From Chitinophagaceae bacterium (GTDB taxonomy: Bacteria > Bacteroidota > Bacteroidia > Chitinophagales > Chitinophagaceae), in assembly GCA_043737055.1 (NCBI GenBank), contig JAYTBG010000001.1:806-64805 (forward strand): a stretch of DNA of 64,000 bases. The letters are read 5' to 3'. A program made the translations under genes and the position numbers. Shown in pieces: positions 29,331-50,848 of this stretch (within the stretch, counting starts at the first letter, position 1; every line of letters starts with the position of its first letter). The notes under the pieces were generated by a model. The model did not search any database. It was not told where the DNA came from and was given only the letters and a program-made list of their open reading frames with translations.

Positions 29331-30698
29331 ATGCAAGCTTGGAAAGATTACCAGGAAACACACAAAGAACGCTTTTTAAATGAATTGTTTGACTTGCTGC
29401 GTATTCCTAGTGTGAGTGCTAAAAGTGAACATAAGGCTGATATGCTGACCTGCGCTGAGGCAGTGAAGGATCGTTTGCTCGAGGCCGGGGCCGACACTGT
29501 AAGCATTTACCCAACAGAAGGCCACCCAATTGTATACGGCGAAAAAATAATTGATCCGGCCAAGCCTACAGTTTTGGTGTATGGTCATTACGATGTACAA
29601 CCAGCCGAACCACTTGAACTATGGAACAGCGGCCCTTTTGAACCTACAGTGGTAGATGGAAAAATATATGCCCGGGGAAGTTGCGATGACAAGGGACAGG
29701 TTTACATGCATATAAAAGCACTTGAAATTCTTGTACAGACAAACACCCTGCAAAGCAATATCAAGTTTTGCATTGAGGGTGAAGAAGAGGTAGGGTCACC
29801 TAATTTGGGAAAGTTTGTGGCAGCTAACACAGCCCTGTTGAAAGCGGACTGCGTGTTGATTAGTGACAGTGCAATGATCAGCATGGATACTCCAAGTCTT
29901 GACATCGGTATGCGGGGTTTAAGCTACATTGAAGTAGAAGTAACCGGCCCTAACAGAGATTTGCACAGCGGAGTATATGGTGGGGCCGTAGCTAATCCCA
30001 TAACCATCCTTGCAAAAATGATTGCTTCGTTGCACGATGAAAATAATCACATCAGCATTCCGGGATTCTACGATGAGGTAGCAGTGGCCACTCCCGAAGA
30101 AAGGGAGTTGATGGCCAGCGCTCCTTTTGATGAAAATGAATATAAAGAGGACTTAGGTGTGCAGGAACTGTGGGGGGAGGCTGGCTATAGCAGCAATGAA
30201 AGAACAGGTATTCGCCCTACCATTGAGCTAAACGGAATTTGGGGAGGTTACACCGGAGAGGGCGCTAAAACAGTTTTACCTTCTAAGGCATTCGCAAAAA
30301 TTTCTGCTAGGCTCGTCCCCAATCAATCCTCTCAAAAAATCAGCGACATACTAATAGAACACCTTCAAAAAATTGCACCGCCATTCGTAACCGTCAAAGC
30401 AACTTTGCATCATGGAGGGGAGCCCTACAGCACACCAATAGATAGCTGTGCATATAAAGCAGCATCTAAAGCTATGGAGACAACTTTCGGCAAAACCCCG
30501 ATACCGGTTAGAGGTGGCGGTAGCATCCCTATTTGTGCGCTGTTCGAAAAAGAATTAGGTATCAAGATAGTGTTTATGGGGTTTGGACTAGATAGCGACA
30601 ACCTGCATAGCCCAAATGAAAAATTCAACATCAAAAATTTTTATAAAGGCATAGAAACTATTCCATGGTTTCATAAATATTTCGCCGAGATGAAATAA
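29331..30698 (+). CDS. M20-family dipeptidase/metallo-hydrolase
   Basis: YGHYDVQP, GRGSCDDKG and EGEEEVGS metal-binding motifs. 455 aa. Confidence 0.85.
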   Translation: MQAWKDYQETHKERFLNELFDLLRIPSVSAKSEHKADMLTCAEAVKDRLLEAGADTVSIYPTEGHPIVYGEKIIDPAKPTVLVYGHYDVQPAEPLELWNSGPFEPTVVDGKIYARGSCDDKGQVYMHIKALEILVQTNTLQSNIKFCIEGEEEVGSPNLGKFVAANTALLKADCVLISDSAMISMDTPSLDIGMRGLSYIEVEVTGPNRDLHSGVYGGAVANPITILAKMIASLHDENNHISIPGFYDEVAVATPEERELMASAPFDENEYKEDLGVQELWGEAGYSSNERTGIRPTIELNGIWGGYTGEGAKTVLPSKAFAKISARLVPNQSSQKISDILIEHLQKIAPPFVTVKATLHHGGEPYSTPIDSCAYKAASKAMETTFGKTPIPVRGGGSIPICALFEKELGIKIVFMGFGLDSDNLHSPNEKFNIKNFYKGIETIPWFHKYFAEMK

Positions 30699-30793
30699 GG
30701 TTTCAAGATTTGGGGAGGCTGATCACCTATATAATTTTAAGCGACTGACAAAATTAACTTTCAAAATCATTTTCGGATGTTAGTAAATACCGC

Positions 30794-30801
30794 TATTTTT
30801 G
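30794..30801 (+). promoter_or_regulatory. Candidate Bacteroidota -7 promoter element for the tRNA
   Basis: TATTTTTG matches TAnnTTTG and ends 10 nt upstream of the tRNA 5' end. I found no clear -33 element. Confidence 0.35.
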
Positions 30802-30811
30802 CCGCCCGATT

Positions 30812-30885
30812 GCCGGGGTAGCTCAGCTGGTTAGAGCATCGGATTCATAACCCGAAGGTCGGCAGTTCAAGTCTGCTCTCCGGTA
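30812..30885 (+). tRNA. tRNA with anticodon CAT (elongator Met, or Ile2 if lysidine-modified)
   Basis: Hand-folded cloverleaf. Acceptor GCCGGGG/CTCCGGT (two G-U pairs), D-arm GCTC-AGCTGGTTA-GAGC, anticodon loop TTCATAA, T-arm GGCAG-TTCAAGT-CTGCT, discriminator A. CCA is not encoded. It lacks initiator features (no 1-72 mismatch, no GGG/CCC anticodon stem). Confidence 0.9.
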
Positions 30886-30887
30886 CA

Positions 30888-30924
30888 AAGCTCAAGTCCT
30901 TGTAAAAAGGGTTTGAGCTTTTTT
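30888..30924 (+). terminator. Rho-independent terminator directly after the tRNA
   Basis: GCTCAA..CCTT / AAGG..TTGAGC stem followed by T6. The hairpin is repeated in the second cassette at 31228-31262. Confidence 0.7.
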
Positions 30925-30927
30925 GAT

Positions 30928-31172
30928 ATGGAACAGTACATTGTCTACATACTGTTCTCTGCAATTGCTAATAAACATTACACTGGATTTTCCTCCCATC
31001 TTGAAAAAGAATCATATCCCATAATAAACTTGGTAAAGGCTGGACATCTAAATTCCGACCCTGGAAAGTAATATTTACAAGGGAATTTCGAATAAAAGCG
31101 GACGCCTTAAAGTTTAGAAGTGGCCTAAAAACAGGAGCTGGAAGAGACTTTATAAAGAACCTGGAACAGTGA
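30928..31172 (+). pseudogene. GIY-YIG (URI/UPF0213-type) nuclease ORF, copy 1, interrupted by a -1 frameshift at an A5 run
   Basis: Frame 0 reads MEQYIVYILFSAIANKHYTGFSSHLEK. The -1 frame from 31008 reads RIISHNKLGKGWTSKFRPWKVIFTREFRIKADALKFRSGLKTGAGRDFIKNLEQ*. Joined, this is an 81-aa GIY-YIG catalytic domain (YVYIL..YTG..LEKR..HN). Confidence 0.75.
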
Positions 31173-31173
31173 T

Positions 31174-31225
31174 ATCGAATTCATATCCGCCGCGGCGGAC
31201 GGCAGTTCAAGTCTGCTCTCCGGTA
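31174..31225 (+). other. 5'-truncated tRNA(CAU) remnant (diverged anticodon-arm-like segment plus exact T-arm, acceptor 3' strand and discriminator)
   Basis: ATCGAATTCATATCCG resembles ATCGGATTCATAACCCG of the live tRNA. 31201-31225 is identical to 30861-30885. There is no D-arm or 5' acceptor strand. Confidence 0.7.
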
Positions 31226-31265
31226 CAAAGCTCAACCTTGTAAAAAGGGTTTTAGCTTTTTTGAT

Positions 31266-31509
31266 ATGGAACAGTACATTGTCCACATATTGTTCTCCGC
31301 AATTGCTAATAAACATTCCACTGGATTTTCCTCCAATCTTGAAAAAGAATCATATCCCATATTGAACTTGGTAAAGGCTGGACATCTAAATTCCCACCTT
31401 GGACAGTAATATTTACAAGGGAATTTCGAATAAAAGCGGACGCCTTAAAGTTTAGGAGTGGCTAAAAACAGGAGCTGGAAGAGGCTTTATAAAGAACCTG
31501 GAATTCTGA
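31266..31509 (+). pseudogene. GIY-YIG nuclease ORF, copy 2: same A5-run frameshift plus a second 1-nt deletion and Y7H in the GIY motif
   Basis: MEQYIVHILFSAIANKHSTGFSSNLEK then -1 frame RIISHIELGKGWTSKFPPWTVIFTREFRIKADALKFRSG*. It is homologous to copy 1 along its whole length. Confidence 0.75.
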
Positions 31510-31510
31510 T

Positions 31511-31556
31511 ATCGAATTCATATCCGCCGCGGCGGACGGCAGTTCAGGTCTGCTCT
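31511..31556 (+). other. Third, decayed tRNA 3' remnant closing the repeat array
   Basis: The same ATCGAATTCATATCCGCCGCGGCGGAC spacer is followed by GGCAGTTCAGGTCTGCTCT (1 mismatch to the T-arm). Similarity is then lost. Confidence 0.6.
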
Positions 31557-31578
31557 TTTCATCCAACAAAGGATACAA

Positions 31579-32151
31579 TTATTTATAGGAAGATACCCTT
31601 GGCCGCCATGGAATTTCTTCAGCTCCCACCAAGTGCCCCACATATCTGGCAAGTACAAAAAGGTAATCGCTCAATCGGTTTAGGTATTGAATGACCAATG
31701 CATCTACATACAATTGCTCCTCTTTCATGTGTACGCAAATTCGTTCGGCACGCCGGCACACACACCGGGCTACATGCAAAGCCGAAACGCTAATATGCCC
31801 CCCAGGCAAGATAAAATATTTCATTATTGGCAATACTTCGTTCATCCGGTCTATTTCAGATTCTAGCAAGGCCACATCCTCCGCTTTTAGATCTGGCATT
31901 TTCATCAGGGGCTCTTTCTCGGGGTCGCAGGCAAGAGAAGACCCAATAGTAAAAAGGCGATCCTGAATCTCTTTGAGTGTTTGGTTGCTTGCGACATCTG
32001 CAACCTGATCGTTGCACAAACCGATATGACAATTTAGTTCGTCAATAGTGCCGTAACTCTCAATGCGCAGGTTGCTCTTTGGAACTCTTGTACCTCCAAT
32101 CAAACTGGTACTACCTGTATCACCGGTTTTGGTGTAAATTTTTAAAGCCAT
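31579..32151 (-). CDS. PduO-type ATP:cob(I)alamin adenosyltransferase
   Basis: MALKIYTKTGDTGSTSL..RVPKS..RIESYGTIDELN is the hallmark N-terminus. I prefer the start at 32151. Confidence 0.88.
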   Translation of the reverse strand: MALKIYTKTGDTGSTSLIGGTRVPKSNLRIESYGTIDELNCHIGLCNDQVADVASNQTLKEIQDRLFTIGSSLACDPEKEPLMKMPDLKAEDVALLESEIDRMNEVLPIMKYFILPGGHISVSALHVARCVCRRAERICVHMKEEQLYVDALVIQYLNRLSDYLFVLARYVGHLVGAEEIPWRPRVSSYK

Positions 32152-32234
32152 TTTATAGGGAATTTTTGGAAAGACTAACCCATTCACTGAGTGTCTTTTA
32201 CCAGCAACAAAGATATTTTCTAATTGTTCACACT

Positions 32235-35205: not shown

Positions 35206-35862
35206 CTACTCAATCAATTGATTTTTCATTGCATAAAAAACCAGTCCCACGGAGTTTTTTACTCCGAATCTTTCCATCAGCCTGTCTTTAATTGCCTCCA
35301 CGGTTCGGGCACTAATATTCATCTTCAGAGCAATTTCTGCTGCTGTAAATTCCATGCATACAAGGGTCAGGGCTTCTTTCTCCCTGTCACTTAGCACAAT
35401 CTCCGATGTGAGTGATGGGTTAAATTTTTGCTTGCCGTAGCTTTTTTTAATGAGCACTTTATTAACAAACGGGTTCAGGTAAAAGCCTGTCCTCATTACA
35501 TCCATCATTGCTCTTTTTATTTCTGAAGGTTCAGTGCTTTTTAGTAAATATCCTGCAGCGCCGCAATCCATAAGGTGACCCACGAAGCGTTCGTCCTCGT
35601 ACATGGTTAAGATAATCACCCTAATATTGGGATATGTTTTAGTGATGATCTTTGTCGCATCAATACCATCTTTGACGGGCATTTTCAGGTCGCATAAAAT
35701 TACGTCGGGGAGAAATTCGGGGATCTTTTGTATGAGATCATCCCCATTATCGGCCTCCATTACAAAACGAATGTTGGTGTAAGGTCTCATGGAGTGAATA
35801 ACACCTTTCCGAAATATCTTGTGATCGTCGGCAATTGCAACATTTATTGTCTGTGGGAGCAT
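35206..35862 (-). CDS. NarL/LuxR-family response regulator (REC + HTH_LuxR)
   Basis: IADDHKIFR and phospho-acceptor context ILCDLKMP. C-terminal LS.REKE.L.L...G.T..EIA..MNIS.RTVE. Confidence 0.88.
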   Translation of the reverse strand: MLPQTINVAIADDHKIFRKGVIHSMRPYTNIRFVMEADNGDDLIQKIPEFLPDVILCDLKMPVKDGIDATKIITKTYPNIRVIILTMYEDERFVGHLMDCGAAGYLLKSTEPSEIKRAMMDVMRTGFYLNPFVNKVLIKKSYGKQKFNPSLTSEIVLSDREKEALTLVCMEFTAAEIALKMNISARTVEAIKDRLMERFGVKNSVGLVFYAMKNQLIE

Positions 35863-35932
35863 ACTGTACCGGTAAAATTAAGAACATCTTTAGATATTAC
35901 TCGTTCTGCTCTTCAATTTTAGAAAAGAAGTT

Positions 35933-36757
35933 TTATACAAGCGGCTCTTTCGGAATTTCGAGTGTGACCTTGTAATAGGTCTGACTATTATCAATTTCGA
36001 AAAAAATGCGGCCGTTTAGGACCTTCATTCTGCTTGCCATATTTTTCAAGCCAAGACCCTGCGACATTTGGTTGAGTTTGTCAAACTCAGCCTGCACAAT
36101 TCCTTTGCCATCATGATGCAGGCGAATGTACATATGGGATGCTGAAGTATTTTGTGTTAGATGAATGAAACCTGCATTACTATGTTTGATAATGTTATTG
36201 ATTAATTCTTGAATAATTCTAAATATGAGTAACTCTTGTTCTACCTTCAGCCGTTGCCTGTAGTCATGGAACCTTGCACTTGCATTCAGGCTACCACTCC
36301 CACTAATTTTTTGAAATAGGTCAGTAGTAGCACTTTCCAACCCAAAGTTTTTTAAAGTTGGTGGCATCAGGCTATGACTTATATTTCGGATCAGTAATAT
36401 GGCGTCGTCAATTATTTGCTTGGCGCTAAAAATGCTTTGTAGTTGTTGTGCTTTCTCCTGATTCACCAGGTTTTCGTTTAAGTAAAGCCTTGCTGTAGCA
36501 AGTAAGGGCCCTGCGTCATCGTGCAAATCGGCCGCTATTCGCTGTCTTTCTTCTTCCTGAAAACGTATGGACGCATTTAGGTACATCTGCTGCTTGTCAG
36601 CTTCCATCTTCTTCATTTGGATGTGGTACCGAATTACCTTTCGCTGGTGCATTATTACAAAAACGATGATTCCAATGGCAAGGGTTATCATGCCGATGGA
36701 ACCAATAAACATTAGCTTAGAAACATCTGAGCTACCGGAAGCCTGTAAAAAGAACAT
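35933..36757 (-). CDS. Sensor histidine kinase core (HisKA_3 + HATPase_c), one TM helix
   Basis: H-box RIAADLHDDAGPLL, N-box ELINNIIKHSNA, and G-boxes HDGKG / GLGLKNM. It sits upstream of the response regulator gene. Confidence 0.85.
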   Translation of the reverse strand: MFFLQASGSSDVSKLMFIGSIGMITLAIGIIVFVIMHQRKVIRYHIQMKKMEADKQQMYLNASIRFQEEERQRIAADLHDDAGPLLATARLYLNENLVNQEKAQQLQSIFSAKQIIDDAILLIRNISHSLMPPTLKNFGLESATTDLFQKISGSGSLNASARFHDYRQRLKVEQELLIFRIIQELINNIIKHSNAGFIHLTQNTSASHMYIRLHHDGKGIVQAEFDKLNQMSQGLGLKNMASRMKVLNGRIFFEIDNSQTYYKVTLEIPKEPLV

Positions 36758-37498: not shown

Positions 37499-38200
37499 AT
37501 ATAATTAACAACTCGTCCTAATCAAAATTTTCTTCTTTACGAAAACAATTGCTCTACCAACTTAATTACCCAAACTAATCCTCCGTACATGGTTAAAAAA
37601 TTTAATTAGTGGTTTACGATTAAATATCATTGTAAACTTGCTCTAAAATATTTCCTTTGACAACCGAGTACCTATGTCAGGTATTTCTACGTAATAGGAC
37701 AAACCCATATCAGAAGCGGCTTTCAGAGCAATTCCGGCATTTAACATCAATAAATATTCAGTAAATGTACGAACAATGGATAGTAAATTTACTATTCAAC
37801 TTATTAGGATGTTTACCTACGTATATCTACCCACCCCTTGATTAAACTTATATCTCATGCCCGGTTAACCTCGTCTTTATGAGCATAAGGCTACTTGACA
37901 TTTGAATGAGTGCAAAAACTTCACCAAAGCATCGGTTGGGGTAAACCTATGTTTCCAAAGGGCACCGAACACAGGGACTGTTCGCTATTTTAATGTTTAT
38001 AAGCTCACTATCCATTACCTTATGAAGCGTATATGTACGCATGTAAGTAATCGTAAATTTACTTTATTAACTTGAGCATTAATATTGATTACCAAAATAT
38101 TGAATCCGGTAAACACTAATTTTTGTTAATATTTCGCTATCTAAAAATGAAAATGTAACTTGATGGCTTATCGTTGAGATTAACCCAATTTCCAATAAAA

Positions 38201-38866
38201 ATGACTGCTGAAAATTTCATTAAAATTGCTATTGCAGATGATCACAAGATCTTTAGAGATGGAATCAAAATGGCACTCTCCGGAAAACCAAATTTGAAAA
38301 TGCTTTGGGAGGCAGAAGATGGCAAAGACATGATGCATAAAATTGCCATTAAAAAGCCCGAAGTTTTACTCATGGACATTAGAATGCCCGAAATGGACGG
38401 CATCAATGCCATTCAACTAATCAGAAAAGAATACGAAGACATCAAAATTATTGTGCTGACAATGTACGATGATCAACAGATGATAAGCAAAATGATGGAA
38501 ATGGGCGCCAACGCTTACCTCACTAAGACAACCGATCCGGAGGAAATTTATGAGGCAATTCTTACCTGCATGAATGACGACTTTTACTTCAACGAATTGG
38601 TGAACAAGGCGGTGATGGGCAAGCTAATGCAGAAAAAGGCGGTTAGGCAACAATATGGTACCAATGCGCCTATTAGCTTTAACGAAAAAGAGATCAAAAT
38701 TCTTCAACTGCTGGCCGAAGACAAAACCACGGAAGAAATTTCAAAAATCATTTTTCTGAGCCCACGAACTATTGAAACAATCCGGCAGGGTATGAAAACA
38801 AAAGTAAACGCAAAAACTATTGGCGGGTTGATTGTTTACGGCATTAGGAATAAGCTGATTGACTAA
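38201..38866 (+). CDS. Orphan NarL/LuxR-family response regulator
   Basis: IADDHKIFRDG, LLMDIRMPEMDG, and HTH block EISKIIFLSPRTIETIR. I prefer the ATG at 38201. Confidence 0.88.
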   Translation: MTAENFIKIAIADDHKIFRDGIKMALSGKPNLKMLWEAEDGKDMMHKIAIKKPEVLLMDIRMPEMDGINAIQLIRKEYEDIKIIVLTMYDDQQMISKMMEMGANAYLTKTTDPEEIYEAILTCMNDDFYFNELVNKAVMGKLMQKKAVRQQYGTNAPISFNEKEIKILQLLAEDKTTEEISKIIFLSPRTIETIRQGMKTKVNAKTIGGLIVYGIRNKLID

Positions 38867-39084
38867 ATTTCACCCTTTTACAGGCTGGCGTTATCATACA
38901 CTGGCTGGAAGCCTAAGCATCAATGACGTCGTAAAGGTAAAACAGCGAAATTACCACGTAAATTTCCCATAATCCAGTAAGAGTAGATACACGCTTTCTT
39001 TAAAATTTGCATAATCCGGATAAATAAATAGCGTTATCTAACGTACTCTTGCTAACTAAAAAAAGCTTTATTTTACTCCCTAAT

Positions 39085-39762
39085 ATGAAAAAAGATCCAT
39101 CAGAACCCATCACAGTAATCATCGCAGATGATCATGTTCTCTACCGTGCGGGTGTAAAAACTTCATTAAGCGCCAAGAAAGATATAAAAGTGATTGCTGA
39201 AGCAGATAACGGAATGCATTTATTAAATTTAATTCGCTCTATTCCAGTTGACGTTATCTTATTAGACATTCAAATGCCAATAATGGACGGAATAGCTGCA
39301 CTCCCGGAAATAAAGAAAATCAGTCCGGATACAAAAGTCATCATGCTCACATTTATGGAAGACAATAGTATGATCACAAAGTTGATGGAACTTGGCGCCA
39401 ATAGCTACCTGGCTAAAACAAGCGACAGCGAGGTTATTTATGAGGCTATAAAAACATGCTACAGTCAGGAGTACTATTTTAACTCGATGACCAATAAGGC
39501 ACTGCTTACAAACCTCAAGCAGAAGAACATGCCCACTCCGCAGCAATTGATGCCGCAGGAAGCACAGCTAAATGAAAAAGAGACAACTATCCTTCGCTTA
39601 ATGTGCGAAGAGAAAAGTACCAAAGAAATTGCAGACCTGGTGGAGTTAAGCCCACGCACAGTTGAAGCTATCAGGGATAAATTGAAAGTAAAAACAGGGG
39701 CTAAAAGCACTGCAGGCTTAATTATGTATGCTGTAAAGCATAAACTGATAGAGGAATTTTAA
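39085..39762 (+). CDS. Orphan NarL/LuxR-family response regulator (paralog)
   Basis: IADDHVLYRAG, LLDIQMPIMDG, and HTH block EIADLVELSPRTVEAIR. I prefer the ATG at 39085. Confidence 0.88.
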   Translation: MKKDPSEPITVIIADDHVLYRAGVKTSLSAKKDIKVIAEADNGMHLLNLIRSIPVDVILLDIQMPIMDGIAALPEIKKISPDTKVIMLTFMEDNSMITKLMELGANSYLAKTSDSEVIYEAIKTCYSQEYYFNSMTNKALLTNLKQKNMPTPQQLMPQEAQLNEKETTILRLMCEEKSTKEIADLVELSPRTVEAIRDKLKVKTGAKSTAGLIMYAVKHKLIEEF

Positions 39763-39785
39763 GGGACGAAATTTATTGATATCTC

Positions 39786-39812
39786 AAATCCCCCGCTTGA
39801 GGGGATTTTTTA
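39786..39812 (+). terminator. Rho-independent terminator
   Basis: AAATCCCC-GCTTGA-GGGGATTT followed by a T-run. It lies inside the over-extended ORF call that starts at 39776. Confidence 0.7.
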
Positions 39813-39823
39813 TTTACAGCTTC

Positions 39824-40672
39824 ATGAAATTTTTAAACTACAACGGTAAGCATTTCGAAGAAGGCACGCCCATTGTTACGGCAGATAATAGGGGCTTGCG
39901 GTATGGCGATGGTTTATTTGAAACCATTAAGTATAAAAATAACACCTGCCTGTTGTTAGATGACCATTTGAAGCGGCTATGGCACGGTATTGACCTTTTG
40001 CAGTTTGCTAAACCCAAACTTTTTACCAGGCAATATTTACGAGATGAGCTAGATAAGCTGATTAAAAAGAACGAGGAAACAAGTGCAAGGGTAAGATTGA
40101 GCATCTTCAGAGGGAAGGGTGGACTTTATGACGCAGAAAATGATAATCCCCAGTTCGTAATTCAGACTATGCCTTTGGGATCAAATACGGGCACTTTCAA
40201 TGTGAATGGTTTGCAGATTTGTGTTTATCGTGACGCTTTAAAAGCAGCAGACGCCTTTAGCAATCTAAAACACAATAATTTTTTACCCTACCTCATGGGC
40301 GCCCAATTTGCAAAGGGCCAAAAATGCAATGATGCCATCATCTTGAATCATCATCTGCGTATTTGCGACAGCACGATCGCCAACATTTTTATAATTAAAA
40401 ATGGCGTAGTTCATACGCCACCGCTTACTGAGGGCTGTGTGGCGGGGGTGATGCGACAATTTATACAGAGCCAGTTGCCTCTCATTGGAATAGAAGTGCT
40501 TGAAAGTGTTATAACTGAGGAAACCCTTCTTAATGCAGATGAAGTTTTTCTAAGCAATTCTATATACAATTTGCGGTGGGTGGCAGGGATTGGCAACGTT
40601 TCGTATAGCAACAAGATAACCCGGAGTATTTATGACAAATTAGCTGAAACAAATGCTGATGTCTTTTGTTAG
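39824..40672 (+). CDS. pabC: Class IV aminotransferase-fold enzyme, aminodeoxychorismate lyase-like
   Basis: RGLRYGDGLFET N-terminal block and fold-type IV length. The start is moved to 39824, downstream of the terminator. Confidence 0.7.
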   Translation: MKFLNYNGKHFEEGTPIVTADNRGLRYGDGLFETIKYKNNTCLLLDDHLKRLWHGIDLLQFAKPKLFTRQYLRDELDKLIKKNEETSARVRLSIFRGKGGLYDAENDNPQFVIQTMPLGSNTGTFNVNGLQICVYRDALKAADAFSNLKHNNFLPYLMGAQFAKGQKCNDAIILNHHLRICDSTIANIFIIKNGVVHTPPLTEGCVAGVMRQFIQSQLPLIGIEVLESVITEETLLNADEVFLSNSIYNLRWVAGIGNVSYSNKITRSIYDKLAETNADVFC

Positions 40673-48859: not shown

Positions 48860-49345
48860 ATGGACATCAAACAGATTCAGGAGCTTGTGAAGCTCATAAA
48901 TAAAACAACGATTGGAGAAATAACGATTGAAGAAGATGGCACCCGAATAACCATAAAGCAGAAAAAAGATCCTTCTCAAAAAATATACGCACAGGGGGCA
49001 CCCCAGTTAGCCCAAGCCCCACAACCAGCACCGGCAGCAACTCCAGCGGCAGCAGCTAACACTTCTACACCCGCTGCGGCACCTCCGGGTCCAAAGCAAG
49101 ACAATCTTATTACGATTAAAAGCCCAATGATTGGAACCTTTTATCGCCAGGCAGGGCGTGATAAACCCGTTTTAGTAAACATTGGCGACGAGGTAGTTGT
49201 TGGGAAAGTGGTTTGCATCATAGAGGCCATGAAGTTGTTTAACGAAATTGAAAGTGAAATTTCTGGCACCATCGTAAAGGTTTTGGTAGAGGATGCAAGC
49301 CCTGTAGAGTATGATCAGCCTTTGTTTTTGGTAGAACCGGCTTAG
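48860..49345 (+). CDS. accB: Acetyl-CoA carboxylase biotin carboxyl carrier protein
   Basis: Ala/Pro-rich linker and biotinyl-Lys motif IEAMKLFNEI. Confidence 0.92.
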   Translation: MDIKQIQELVKLINKTTIGEITIEEDGTRITIKQKKDPSQKIYAQGAPQLAQAPQPAPAATPAAAANTSTPAAAPPGPKQDNLITIKSPMIGTFYRQAGRDKPVLVNIGDEVVVGKVVCIIEAMKLFNEIESEISGTIVKVLVEDASPVEYDQPLFLVEPA

Positions 49346-49426
49346 ATAAGTAAAAATTAAAAAGTCAAAAGTCAAAACCTTCTTGGCAATTTTTAATTTT
49401 CAATTTTTAATTATTAATTATTTACT

Positions 49427-50764: not shown

Positions 50765-50848
50765 GCCTGCAAAGATGAAAAGTGAAAGGTGAAACCTGCA
50801 TCCGGTTTACATTTGACCTTTGACCTTTCACCTTTCACCTTTCACCAC

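Follow-up and report, generated by a model that had tools for sequence, protein, structure and literature searches.

Free-standing GIY-YIG nuclease genes at tRNA loci have a described precedent in SegB, a homing endonuclease encoded within a tRNA gene cluster of phages T4 and T6 (PMC2330249; PMC13096335). SegB cuts inside tRNA genes and, together with recombination proteins, drives the tandem amplification of a 718-bp unit of tRNATyr and segB, in which the junction joins the tRNA to the 3′ end of segB (PMC13096335). Here we analyze a stretch of 64,000 nucleotides (nt) from a Chitinophagaceae bacterium (contig JAYTBG010000001.1, positions 806 to 64,805; the window hereafter), in which an intact tRNA(CAU) gene is followed by a tandem array of small GIY-YIG genes and partial tRNA copies, or pseudo-tRNAs. 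We refer to the repeated unit as the cassette. The likeness to SegB lies in a nuclease gene beside a tRNA, in tandem units that hold both the nuclease gene and tRNA sequence, in a junction where the tRNA meets the end of the nuclease gene, and in a copy number that varies. SegB amplification is recombination-dependent, unstable and accordion-like, and we count this as a further resemblance to the cassette. The preferred SegB motif RAWTSGAAC, reverse-complemented, is the T-loop consensus GTTCSAWTY, and pseudo-tRNAs of an upstream type, described below, break off in the T-loop. SegB differs as a phage protein with a DNA-binding part and more than twice the length, whose whole-tRNA unit gives a dosage benefit, whereas the cassette is chromosomal, encodes 80 amino acids (aa) of the Slx1/UPF0213 branch and carries a partial, hairpin-substituted tRNA. 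Cassette arrays are also old by synonymous divergence (dS reaching 0.46-0.48 between copies of one array) and phylogenetically widespread, and a role for the nuclease in their amplification is proposed by analogy. Because it comes from another GIY-YIG branch, has no DNA-binding part, is chromosomal and has a unit without a whole tRNA, the cassette is not a member of the SegB family; in its working it would be most like SegB-type amplification at tRNA loci.

Other known systems share single features with the cassette. Slx1 and the bacterial UPF0213 proteins (BH0048, EF2693; COG2827) give the best sequence and fold matches and share with the cassette protein a core nuclease domain of equal size. 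The substrates of Slx1 are branched and stem-loop DNA, not specific sequences; Slx1 differs from the cassette protein in needing Slx4 and in having a zinc-finger domain. For bacterial UPF0213 proteins, our literature search returned no function, genomic association or linkage to tRNA(CAU) or to a hairpin. I-TevI and the Seg homing endonucleases share the GIY-YIG fold and presence/absence polymorphism at a conserved gene, and their gene-adjacent sequence differs from the native target in a way that could confer immunity; the pseudo-tRNAs of the cassette likewise differ from the native tRNA exactly at positions 38-47. The cassette differs from them in having neither a DNA-binding domain nor an intron, in the intact native tRNA beside it, in a weak fold match to I-TevI and in strong purifying selection. 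Integrase-borne tRNA islands and prophages resemble it in that a direct repeat of the 3′ portion of the tRNA, beginning near the anticodon arm, encloses additional DNA; the cassette differs in its 340-bp, tandem unit, which has a hairpin at positions 38-47 and no integrase or other recombinase. Type III toxin-antitoxin systems (ToxIN) also have a structured RNA gene, a terminator and a small nuclease ORF (open reading frame) reached by read-through, with a repeated RNA module. Their nuclease family is unrelated, the cassette has no match in PADLOC and its RNA is a housekeeping tRNA, so that the resemblance is one of layout only. GIY-YIG enzymes are DNA nucleases. Open-access papers and bioRxiv yielded no account of a link between UPF0213 genes and tRNA(CAU), and none of hairpin-substituted pseudo-tRNAs; the cassette family is apparently both widespread and undescribed.

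The tRNA gene at the head of the window array (30812-30885, forward strand, as are all array features given here) is the sole tRNA that ARAGORN calls in the 64 kb, as tRNA-Met(CAT) at 30812-30886, and Rfam RF00005 matches it at 62.9 bits (E value 5.3e-13). It is intact, elongator-type and called Met (Met or Ile2 class), with a sequence unchanged in strain relatives. Ten nucleotides 5′ of it lies a candidate promoter box, TATTTTTG (30794-30801), proposed from its fit to TAnnTTTG, the Bacteroidetes -7 promoter motif. In relatives, too, this box stands in front of the tRNA, and judging from sequence it is probably the sole promoter for the whole array. The native tRNA trailer (30887-30926) forms a 15-bp hairpin followed by a T-run, resembles an intrinsic terminator (folding free energy dG -17.8) and folds far better than shuffled sequences (z = -5.5). 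The T-run is followed by a 1-nt gap and then by the start of an ORF (G 30925, A 30926, T 30927, ATG 30928).

Three families of direct repeats in the window mark out two tandem units and the beginning of another. A 39-nt block at 30857-30895 recurs at 31197-31235 (97%) and partially at 31534-31572, and global alignment of unit 1 (30861-31200, 340 nt) with unit 2 (31201-31537, 337 nt) gives 94.4% identity, with 321 matches, 16 substitutions and 2 indels (3 gap columns). The 14-nt palindrome TCCGCCGCGGCGGA, hereafter H2, occurs twice in the window (31186-31199 and 31523-31536; chance expectation 0.01) and is confined to the two tRNA remnants. The first of these, pseudo-tRNA module 1 (31173-31225), recurs in relatives and is built as follows: tRNA-like positions ~25-37 (31173-31185) are followed by H2 in place of positions 38-47 and then by C48, the T-arm (31201-31217), the acceptor 3′ strand and the discriminator. 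Behind it comes a second copy of the trailer and terminator (31226-31264) with a 2-nt deletion and one stem mismatch. The terminal pseudo-tRNA module (31510-31556) is the right edge of the array; its H2 is intact, its T-arm (31538-31556) is mutated and truncated, and the acceptor strand and terminator are missing. Terminal modules are decayed in two related loci (L210 and L213) too. The region folds as three successive hairpins at the ORF 3′ end. The remnants are called as tRNA neither by ARAGORN nor, even at E<=10, by the Rfam tRNA model, and a cmscan of 30600-31800 against 4227 Rfam models at E<=10 returned only the tRNA and weak, chance-level matches, so that a known RNA family on the remnants was rejected.

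The ORFs of both units are GIY-YIG pseudogenes. Copy 1 (30928-31172; 81 codons after repair, best homolog 67% identical) and copy 2 (31266-31509) are each frameshifted by -1 through an A missing from an A-run (31004-31008 and 31342-31346, respectively), and copy 2 has an additional 1-nt deletion near 31460. After frame repair both match Pfam PF01541 above its cut-off of 22.6 bits (copy 1, 42 bits, E value 1.1e-10; copy 2, 24.2 bits, E value 4.1e-05). Repaired copy 1 keeps 15/15 family-invariant residues, and copy 2 is without three of them (Y7H, Y18S, R44P). Neither copy thus combines an open frame with the catalytic residues; intact ORFs are found in relatives. Since both nuclease genes are dead, the window array is a degenerate relic of a wider cassette family.

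A first-pass annotation, made from the letters alone, had already proposed an intact tRNA(CAU) at these positions, two tandem units of 340 and 337 bp with 16 substitutions and 2 indels, a third, decayed copy of the tRNA 3′ end, a hairpin/T-run terminator and an 81-codon GIY-YIG ORF in each unit. All of this was borne out, the unit figures exactly. Of the two spacer palindromes that it singled out, TCCGCCGCGGCGGA is, in its stem, conserved in most of the family; GATATCGAATTCATATC is lineage-specific and not kept in relatives. Its remark that no integrase or transposase is present also holds over the range scanned, none having been found within ~9 kb on either side (21.2-40.7 kb of the window were scanned, and the neighbors are housekeeping genes) or near related loci, where no integrase or recombinase appears among the called genes of ~25 loci.

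The tRNA linkage of the cassette is near-obligate. The repaired window protein recovers 88 relatives of ~80 aa with up to 67% identity, including proteins of Ferruginibacter, Parafilimonas, other Chitinophagaceae and Moheibacter. A protein-alignment scan over one genome per GTDB species gave 305 confirmed matches, from which 79 distinct loci were kept, all with the same minimal content. Fifty-seven loci have 400 nt or more of DNA upstream of their first ORF, and in 51 of these a tRNA(CAT) lies ahead of it on the same strand, no more than 400 nt away (median gap 38 nt); the first-pass annotation had suggested looking for homologs systematically 3′ of tRNA(CAU). In one of the six exceptions the tRNA is hidden in an assembly gap, one has a 5′-truncated tRNA, two are unexplained and two have an upstream pseudo-tRNA; one of the last two, L039, has its live tRNA downstream, in a mirror layout where an upstream pseudo-tRNA plus ORF is repeated twice before the live tRNA. 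Hosts are chiefly Chitinophagaceae, and the cassette also occurs in Sphingobacteriaceae, Weeksellaceae, Flavobacterium, Candidatus Kryptoniota and Balneolales. In Ferruginibacter, intact ORFs form arrays of 2-4: behind tRNA-Met(CAT), Ferruginibacter sp. SUN106 and two metagenome-assembled genomes of the genus have three or four intact GIY-YIG genes at a spacing of ~350 bp, each continued by ...GATTCATA-TCCGCCGCGGCGGA-C-T-arm-acceptor and then a terminator.

Linkage is seen with both elongator tRNA-Met and initiator tRNA-fMet, and the type of the pseudo-tRNA matches that of the adjacent tRNA. The adjacent tRNA is initiator-like at L019, L042 and L075, with a GGG/CCC anticodon stem and an initiator-type D-arm (and C1 in L042 and L075), features that mark initiator identity. 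The pseudo-tRNAs of L019 and L042 are of initiator type with the usual hairpin, and that of L075 is of initiator type with a different one. L082 has an initiator-type pseudo-tRNA with the usual hairpin on a contig without a tRNA.

Some loci are more complex. At L060:840-4350, two tRNA-Met genes, each with a GIY-YIG gene (one of which has a stop), lie on opposite strands, and L133:2850-10700 has nine hairpin sites; both have several cassette or hairpin copies in both orientations within a few kb and may be hotspots or inverted duplications. Short-read contigs (L207, L208, L214, L215 and many of L005-L083) very often end in or at the edge of arrays, and in L213 a frameshift joins two units into one 174-aa gene call. 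Arrays are likely to be systematically mis-assembled and mis-annotated.

A GC-rich perfect hairpin lies within 62 nt downstream in 72 of the 86 ORFs with enough downstream DNA, and ~64 of the 72 are of the TCCGCC-loop-GGCGGA type. Of these H2 hairpins, 42 are the perfect 14-nt palindrome, and the rest, with 2-6 nt in the loop, vary at the center only. The hairpin stands in place of tRNA positions 38-47 (ACCCGAAGGT), that is, the 3′ strand of the anticodon stem and the variable loop, and its flanks are those of the tRNA at its own locus (left, ~positions 24-37; right, positions 48-76). In 57% of loci the 24 nt 3′ of the hairpin agree exactly with the tRNA at the same locus, and in 71% they match it at >=22/24 positions; exact agreement with the tRNAs of other loci stands at 3.6%. 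The loci represent 19 distinct tRNA 3′ parts. Homologs are therefore bounded by duplications of the 3′ part of the adjacent tRNA, as had been expected. In several loci the trailers of tRNA and pseudo-tRNA have diverged while the tRNA-derived part is still identical. The hairpin stem is constant over at least 8 T-arm types and two tRNA classes, which contradicts the earlier view of the remnants as mere decayed scars; the remnant is a conserved module, not decay alone. Its 5′ edge is variable: the ORF stop codon usually abuts position ~20-24, sometimes by way of the D-loop TTAG, and a D-arm is still recognizable in the pseudo-tRNAs of L021, L043, L062 and L079.

Modules also occur in other arrangements. 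A scan of metagenome contigs for the exact motif gave at least 120 loci, and among the matches listed 90 hairpin sites lie far enough from contig ends to be classified. Twenty of these have a GIY-YIG ORF directly upstream and 15 follow a tRNA without an intervening ORF; a further 21 stand immediately 5′ of a tRNA, 14 belong to other arrays and 20 are solitary (a few of the solitary sites being chance matches in GC-rich coding sequence). The upstream copies are made up of the tRNA 5′ flank and positions 1 to ~54-60 with the hairpin, as in L123, L084 and L217; L123 has three of them with a 111-nt period. Two fragments, L200:1-740 and L162:1-530, hold at least six and four units, respectively, of initiator-type pseudo-tRNA, hairpin and terminator with a period of ~105 nt, and neither fragment contains a GIY-YIG ORF or an intact tRNA. 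Further perfect GC-rich palindromes stand in place of a D-loop, D-arm or T-loop: CTCCGAAGCTTCGGAG / CTCCGAAATTTCGGAG / TTCCGAAGTTTCGGAA, TCCCGATAGTYATCGGGA, CCTGCAGG, CCTGCCTGCCGSAGGCAGG and TCCGCCACGGCGGA, seen at L035, L017, L032, L001, L041, L044, L053, L056, L086, L123, L084, L015 and L039. Of these, TCCGCCACGGCGGA substitutes a D-arm, and CTCCGAAGCTTCGGAG, TCCCGATAGTYATCGGGA and CCTGCCTGCCGSAGGCAGG substitute D-loops or T-loops. Some look like inverted duplications of nearby tRNA sequence (CCCGAAG, CCCGATA). The L075 hairpin (~2731-2780), TCCCGAAAG|CTTTCGGGA, resembles native positions 38-46 joined to an inverted copy of themselves, a hint that fold-back at a variable-loop break can produce hairpins of this kind.

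Several variants of the module were recorded alongside these. In L073 (~2743-2790) the order is GGCGGA-CTCATA-TCCGCC-CGA-GGCGGA, and the left arm could pair with the GGCGGA ahead of it, which would restore a stem-loop like that of the anticodon, or else with the downstream arm, giving two alternative structures. L047 (~2400-2494) has a 5′-truncated tRNA fragment with no hairpin directly upstream of the terminator and ORF, the only pseudo-copy seen with the native 38-47 segment. Solitary modules with no tRNA or ORF nearby (L086:5836, L091:4694, L135:4749, L194:1534, L197:1068) keep a conserved context in several related contigs; the conserved AATCAAGGACTTACGTTAAATCGTGGGTCC follows solitary modules and also stands after the module in L056. 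A count of G-U versus A-C mismatches (RNA versus DNA hairpins) used a pattern that captured 12 sites only. The idea that the acceptor 5′ strand lies inside the ORF at the codons for K-[T/S]-G-A-G, which would give a full tRNA-like fold, looked plausible in the window and in L003 and was rejected, as these codons do not track the acceptor 3′ strand across loci.

The dynamics of the array can be followed at its orthologous site, which lies between the genes for the M20 dipeptidase and PduO. An exact look-up of the window dipeptidase matched nothing, and synteny was compared through near-identical dipeptidase homologs; the dipeptidase flank is common to 5/79 loci. Three independent metagenome assemblies of strain-level relatives have an identical two-unit, 881-nt interval, and since they agree the array is not an assembly artefact. 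These strain relatives differ from the window by 2.0-3.5% in the cassette region and by ~0.7-1.0% in the flanks. Copy 1 of L204 lacks the window frameshift and carries another 1-nt deletion, so the inactivations are recent and partly independent. At this site a sister species, whose dipeptidase is 89% identical, has two units in which the 81-aa ORFs are open, and one contig with an identical dipeptidase has three. Across the site, unit numbers are 0 (L221, L223), 2 (the window, L204-206, L210-212) and 3 (L213), in agreement with the expected variation between close relatives; L217 combines an upstream pseudo-tRNA with two units belonging to a divergent 84-aa subfamily. In L221 (Ferruginibacter sp.) the adenosyltransferase gene comes after the tRNA and a homologous terminator, and both ORF and hairpin are missing; this is the empty site that the first-pass annotation had suggested looking for, and L223 is likewise cassette-free. 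Presence/absence polymorphism at a conserved site, as known for homing endonucleases, is therefore found here.

The protein is of the UPF0213/Slx1-like (URI) branch of GIY-YIG, which is predicted to be structure-specific, as both profile and model comparisons indicate. A family profile searched against the PDB matched 1zg2 (2.7e-08), 1ywl (2.4e-07) and SLX1 (7.4e-06). The AlphaFold (AF2) model (pLDDT, the predicted local distance difference test, 96.3) was matched by Foldseek to 1zg2 at 7e-05 (the UPF0213 protein BH0048) and to the Slx1 nuclease domain with TM (template modeling) scores of 0.69-0.75; the I-TevI catalytic domain was matched only at an E value of about 1. The subfamily comprises 2049 clusters at 50% identity (E<=1e-10). 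The ratio of nonsynonymous to synonymous substitution rates (dN/dS) has a median of 0.10 over 100 pairs, and copies in one array, at the dS given above, have a dN of 0.03-0.05; ORFs can persist in arrays for a long time. PADLOC gave no match to a defense component for P0003 or the repaired window protein, PHROG only a marginal match, and NCBIfam a sub-threshold match to a group I intron endonuclease. A link to Eco29kI was considered, as the hairpin center is CCGCGG, the site of this GIY-YIG restriction enzyme, and was rejected as coincidence: Eco29kI is absent from the PDB profile and fold search results, and many hairpins have other centers. One predicted protein, P0226 (2576 aa), has 18 separate matches to the 80-aa GIY-YIG profile and may represent either read-through translation along a long array or a protein that is truly repetitive.

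Our preferred reading, for which we see roughly even chances, is a chromosomal cassette on tRNA(CAU) genes of Bacteroidota and neighboring phyla, expressed by tRNA read-through and changing copy number by recombination, with breaks made by its nuclease. The unit consists of an ~80-aa Slx1/UPF0213-type GIY-YIG gene, promoterless and starting a few nt past the tRNA terminator T-run; a pseudo-tRNA, positions ~24-76 of the neighboring tRNA with 38-47 swapped for TCCGCC-loop-GGCGGA; and a further copy of the tRNA trailer and terminator. As the ORF starts close to the T-run and no Bacteroidota-type promoter box was found between the tRNA and the ORFs, it is probably translated from tRNA read-through transcripts. 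Homologous recombination between the direct repeats that the tRNA 3′ part and the pseudo-tRNAs supply would allow expansion, contraction and loss, as the varying unit number between relatives suggests, and nuclease breaks in tRNA-gene or pseudo-tRNA DNA may start this recombination, by comparison with phage SegB. The hairpin could be a cassette-borne, nuclease-resistant replacement of the tRNA-gene target, making the copies resistant, or a structured substrate cut by a structure-specific nuclease, where variation at the center only would fit repeated cutting and repair; a third possibility is an independent palindromic invader, taken up below. A bolder proposal, which we put forward tentatively as a possible explanation, is an undescribed class of chromosomal self-amplifying element: a pseudo-tRNA(CAU) with a fixed recognition hairpin, joined to a minimal Slx1-like GIY-YIG nuclease that would cut the hairpin or the matching tRNA(CAU) site, with the tRNA gene lending promoter and recombination homology. 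Such an element would reach new tRNA(CAU) genes, including by an elongator/initiator switch. The first-pass annotation knew of no description of this architecture as an element class, and our search of open-access papers and bioRxiv agrees.

A number of observations weigh against the preferred reading. The family proteins (78-85 aa) consist of the catalytic domain only, without the separate DNA-binding domain of homing endonucleases, and we know of no cleavage specificity for any UPF0213 protein. Strong purifying selection together with the intra-array dS is unusual for a purely selfish homing gene and fits a host-useful function equally well. A full-length tRNA in each unit, as in SegB, is absent: only the first copy (the last in upstream-type arrays) is a complete tRNA, and the others are without positions 1 to ~23 and carry the hairpin. 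The live tRNA beside the cassette keeps its native 38-47 segment, so that the host gene would be cut repeatedly were 38-47 the target. Roughly half of the hairpin-marked pseudo-tRNAs in metagenomes, among the matches listed, have no adjoining ORF. The empty sites L221 and L223 are either ancestral or clean deletions between direct repeats. No transfer vehicle is seen, because neither relatives of the cassette protein nor the hairpin motif were found in 2.9 million viral contigs (IMG/VR), and a phage vehicle was rejected on the same grounds. Recent transposition was also rejected, since the sole exact protein checked (P0007) has a single genomic context across 9 contigs. The homing-like selfish cassette inferred by the first-pass annotation is supported in part: given the missing DNA-binding domain, strong purifying selection, a stable context and ORF-less or upstream modules, strict homing would be one reading among several.

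The alternative that survives best, though we judge it rather unlikely, is a domesticated host module that is not selfish, with copy-number variation as an incidental product of unequal crossing-over. The nuclease might, for example, process branched or R-loop DNA at the highly transcribed tRNA locus, and the H2, T-arm and terminator hairpins might stabilize or regulate its mRNA, which the three consecutive hairpins at the ORF 3′ end would suit. A dN/dS of about 0.10, the conservation of both array copies over the dS that separates them, the stable context of one exact protein, the fold of a structure-specific nuclease and the absence from the phage contigs searched all speak for such a module. 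It sits poorly with a cassette that is dispensable, as the empty orthologous sites indicate, with pseudogenes in the window and its strain relatives that bear differing inactivating mutations, with terminal copies that decay, with ORF-less, upstream and pseudo-tRNA-only arrays that have no obvious role, and with the divergent subfamily at the same locus in L217. Moreover, the hairpin stem is conserved in sequence and does not covary, and so points to a recognized site or common descent and not to a generic stabilizer.

Improbable, in our assessment, is that the palindromes are independent small mobile or recombination-made hairpins, comparable to repetitive extragenic palindromic (REP) elements or organellar GC clusters, that gather in non-functional tRNA(CAU) copies, the GIY-YIG gene being their nuclease or a mere neighbor. 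In the window H2 is present in the two remnants only, its tRNA position is nearly constant in the loci examined, and it replaces 10 nt where an insertion would add to them. In favor of independence stand the other palindromes (CTCCGAAGCTTCGGAG, TCCCGATAGTYATCGGGA, CCTGCCTGCCGSAGGCAGG, TCCGCCACGGCGGA) that replace D- or T-loops or a D-arm in pseudo-tRNAs, the setting of H2 within locally matching tRNA sequence on both sides in 5′-type and 3′-type copies alike, the restriction of H2 variation to the center (42 of ~64 copies being perfect) and the L075 hairpin with its likeness to native 38-46 plus inverted copy.

An origin as the scar of an integrase-mediated island or prophage insertion, with the GIY-YIG gene as leftover cargo, is very improbable. 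tRNA 3′ repeats that start at the anticodon arm are typical attachment (att) sites of tRNA-integrating elements, and the direct repeats seen here start in that region; the loci lack integrases and recombinases over the ranges given above, the unit of ~340 bp is tandemly iterated with the same minimal content at 79 loci, no viral copies were found in IMG/VR, and att duplication would not yield a hairpin in place of 38-47. Ordinary tandem tRNA(CAU) paralogs that decayed beside an unrelated small gene, or an assembly artefact, both of which the first-pass annotation had named as outcomes that would overturn its proposal, are scarcely credible: tandem intact tRNA-Met genes do lie upstream of some cassettes (L097, L122, L129) and many contigs do break inside arrays, but the same hairpin substitution recurs with the same ORF family across families and phyla, the remnants are identical to the live tRNA even where trailers have diverged, and independent assemblies concur on two units.

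The preferred reading of a tRNA(CAU)-bound chromosomal cassette bears on protein function and on annotation. UPF0213/COG2827 mini GIY-YIG proteins are very common, and we found no assigned function or partner for them; the near-obligate link to tRNA(CAU) and a fixed hairpin supplies concrete candidate substrates. The link between GIY-YIG nucleases, tRNA genes and tandem amplification is extended from phages (SegB) to bacterial chromosomes. Should the new element class proposed above prove true, it would give the UPF0213/COG2827 family its first biological role and substrate. Practically, the arrays break short-read assemblies and yield pseudo-tRNAs as well as small ORFs, frameshifted or fused, both of which annotation pipelines will mishandle.

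The array is flanked by two genes that lie outside the element. Upstream is the M20 dipeptidase gene (29331-30698, forward strand), the synteny anchor, and downstream the gene for a PduO-type cob(I)yrinic acid a,c-diamide adenosyltransferase (31579-32187, reverse strand), whose true start is probably internal because relatives are called at 188-190 aa. Further downstream, 38174-40672 and 35206-36757 hold ordinary two-component genes, namely LuxR-type response regulators (three with receiver and GerE domains) and a HisKA_3 histidine kinase. Tandem Repeats Finder also reports short tandem repeats at 48903-48934, 49388-49424 and 50812-50846, with periods of 15, 7 and 7, which are unrelated to the array.

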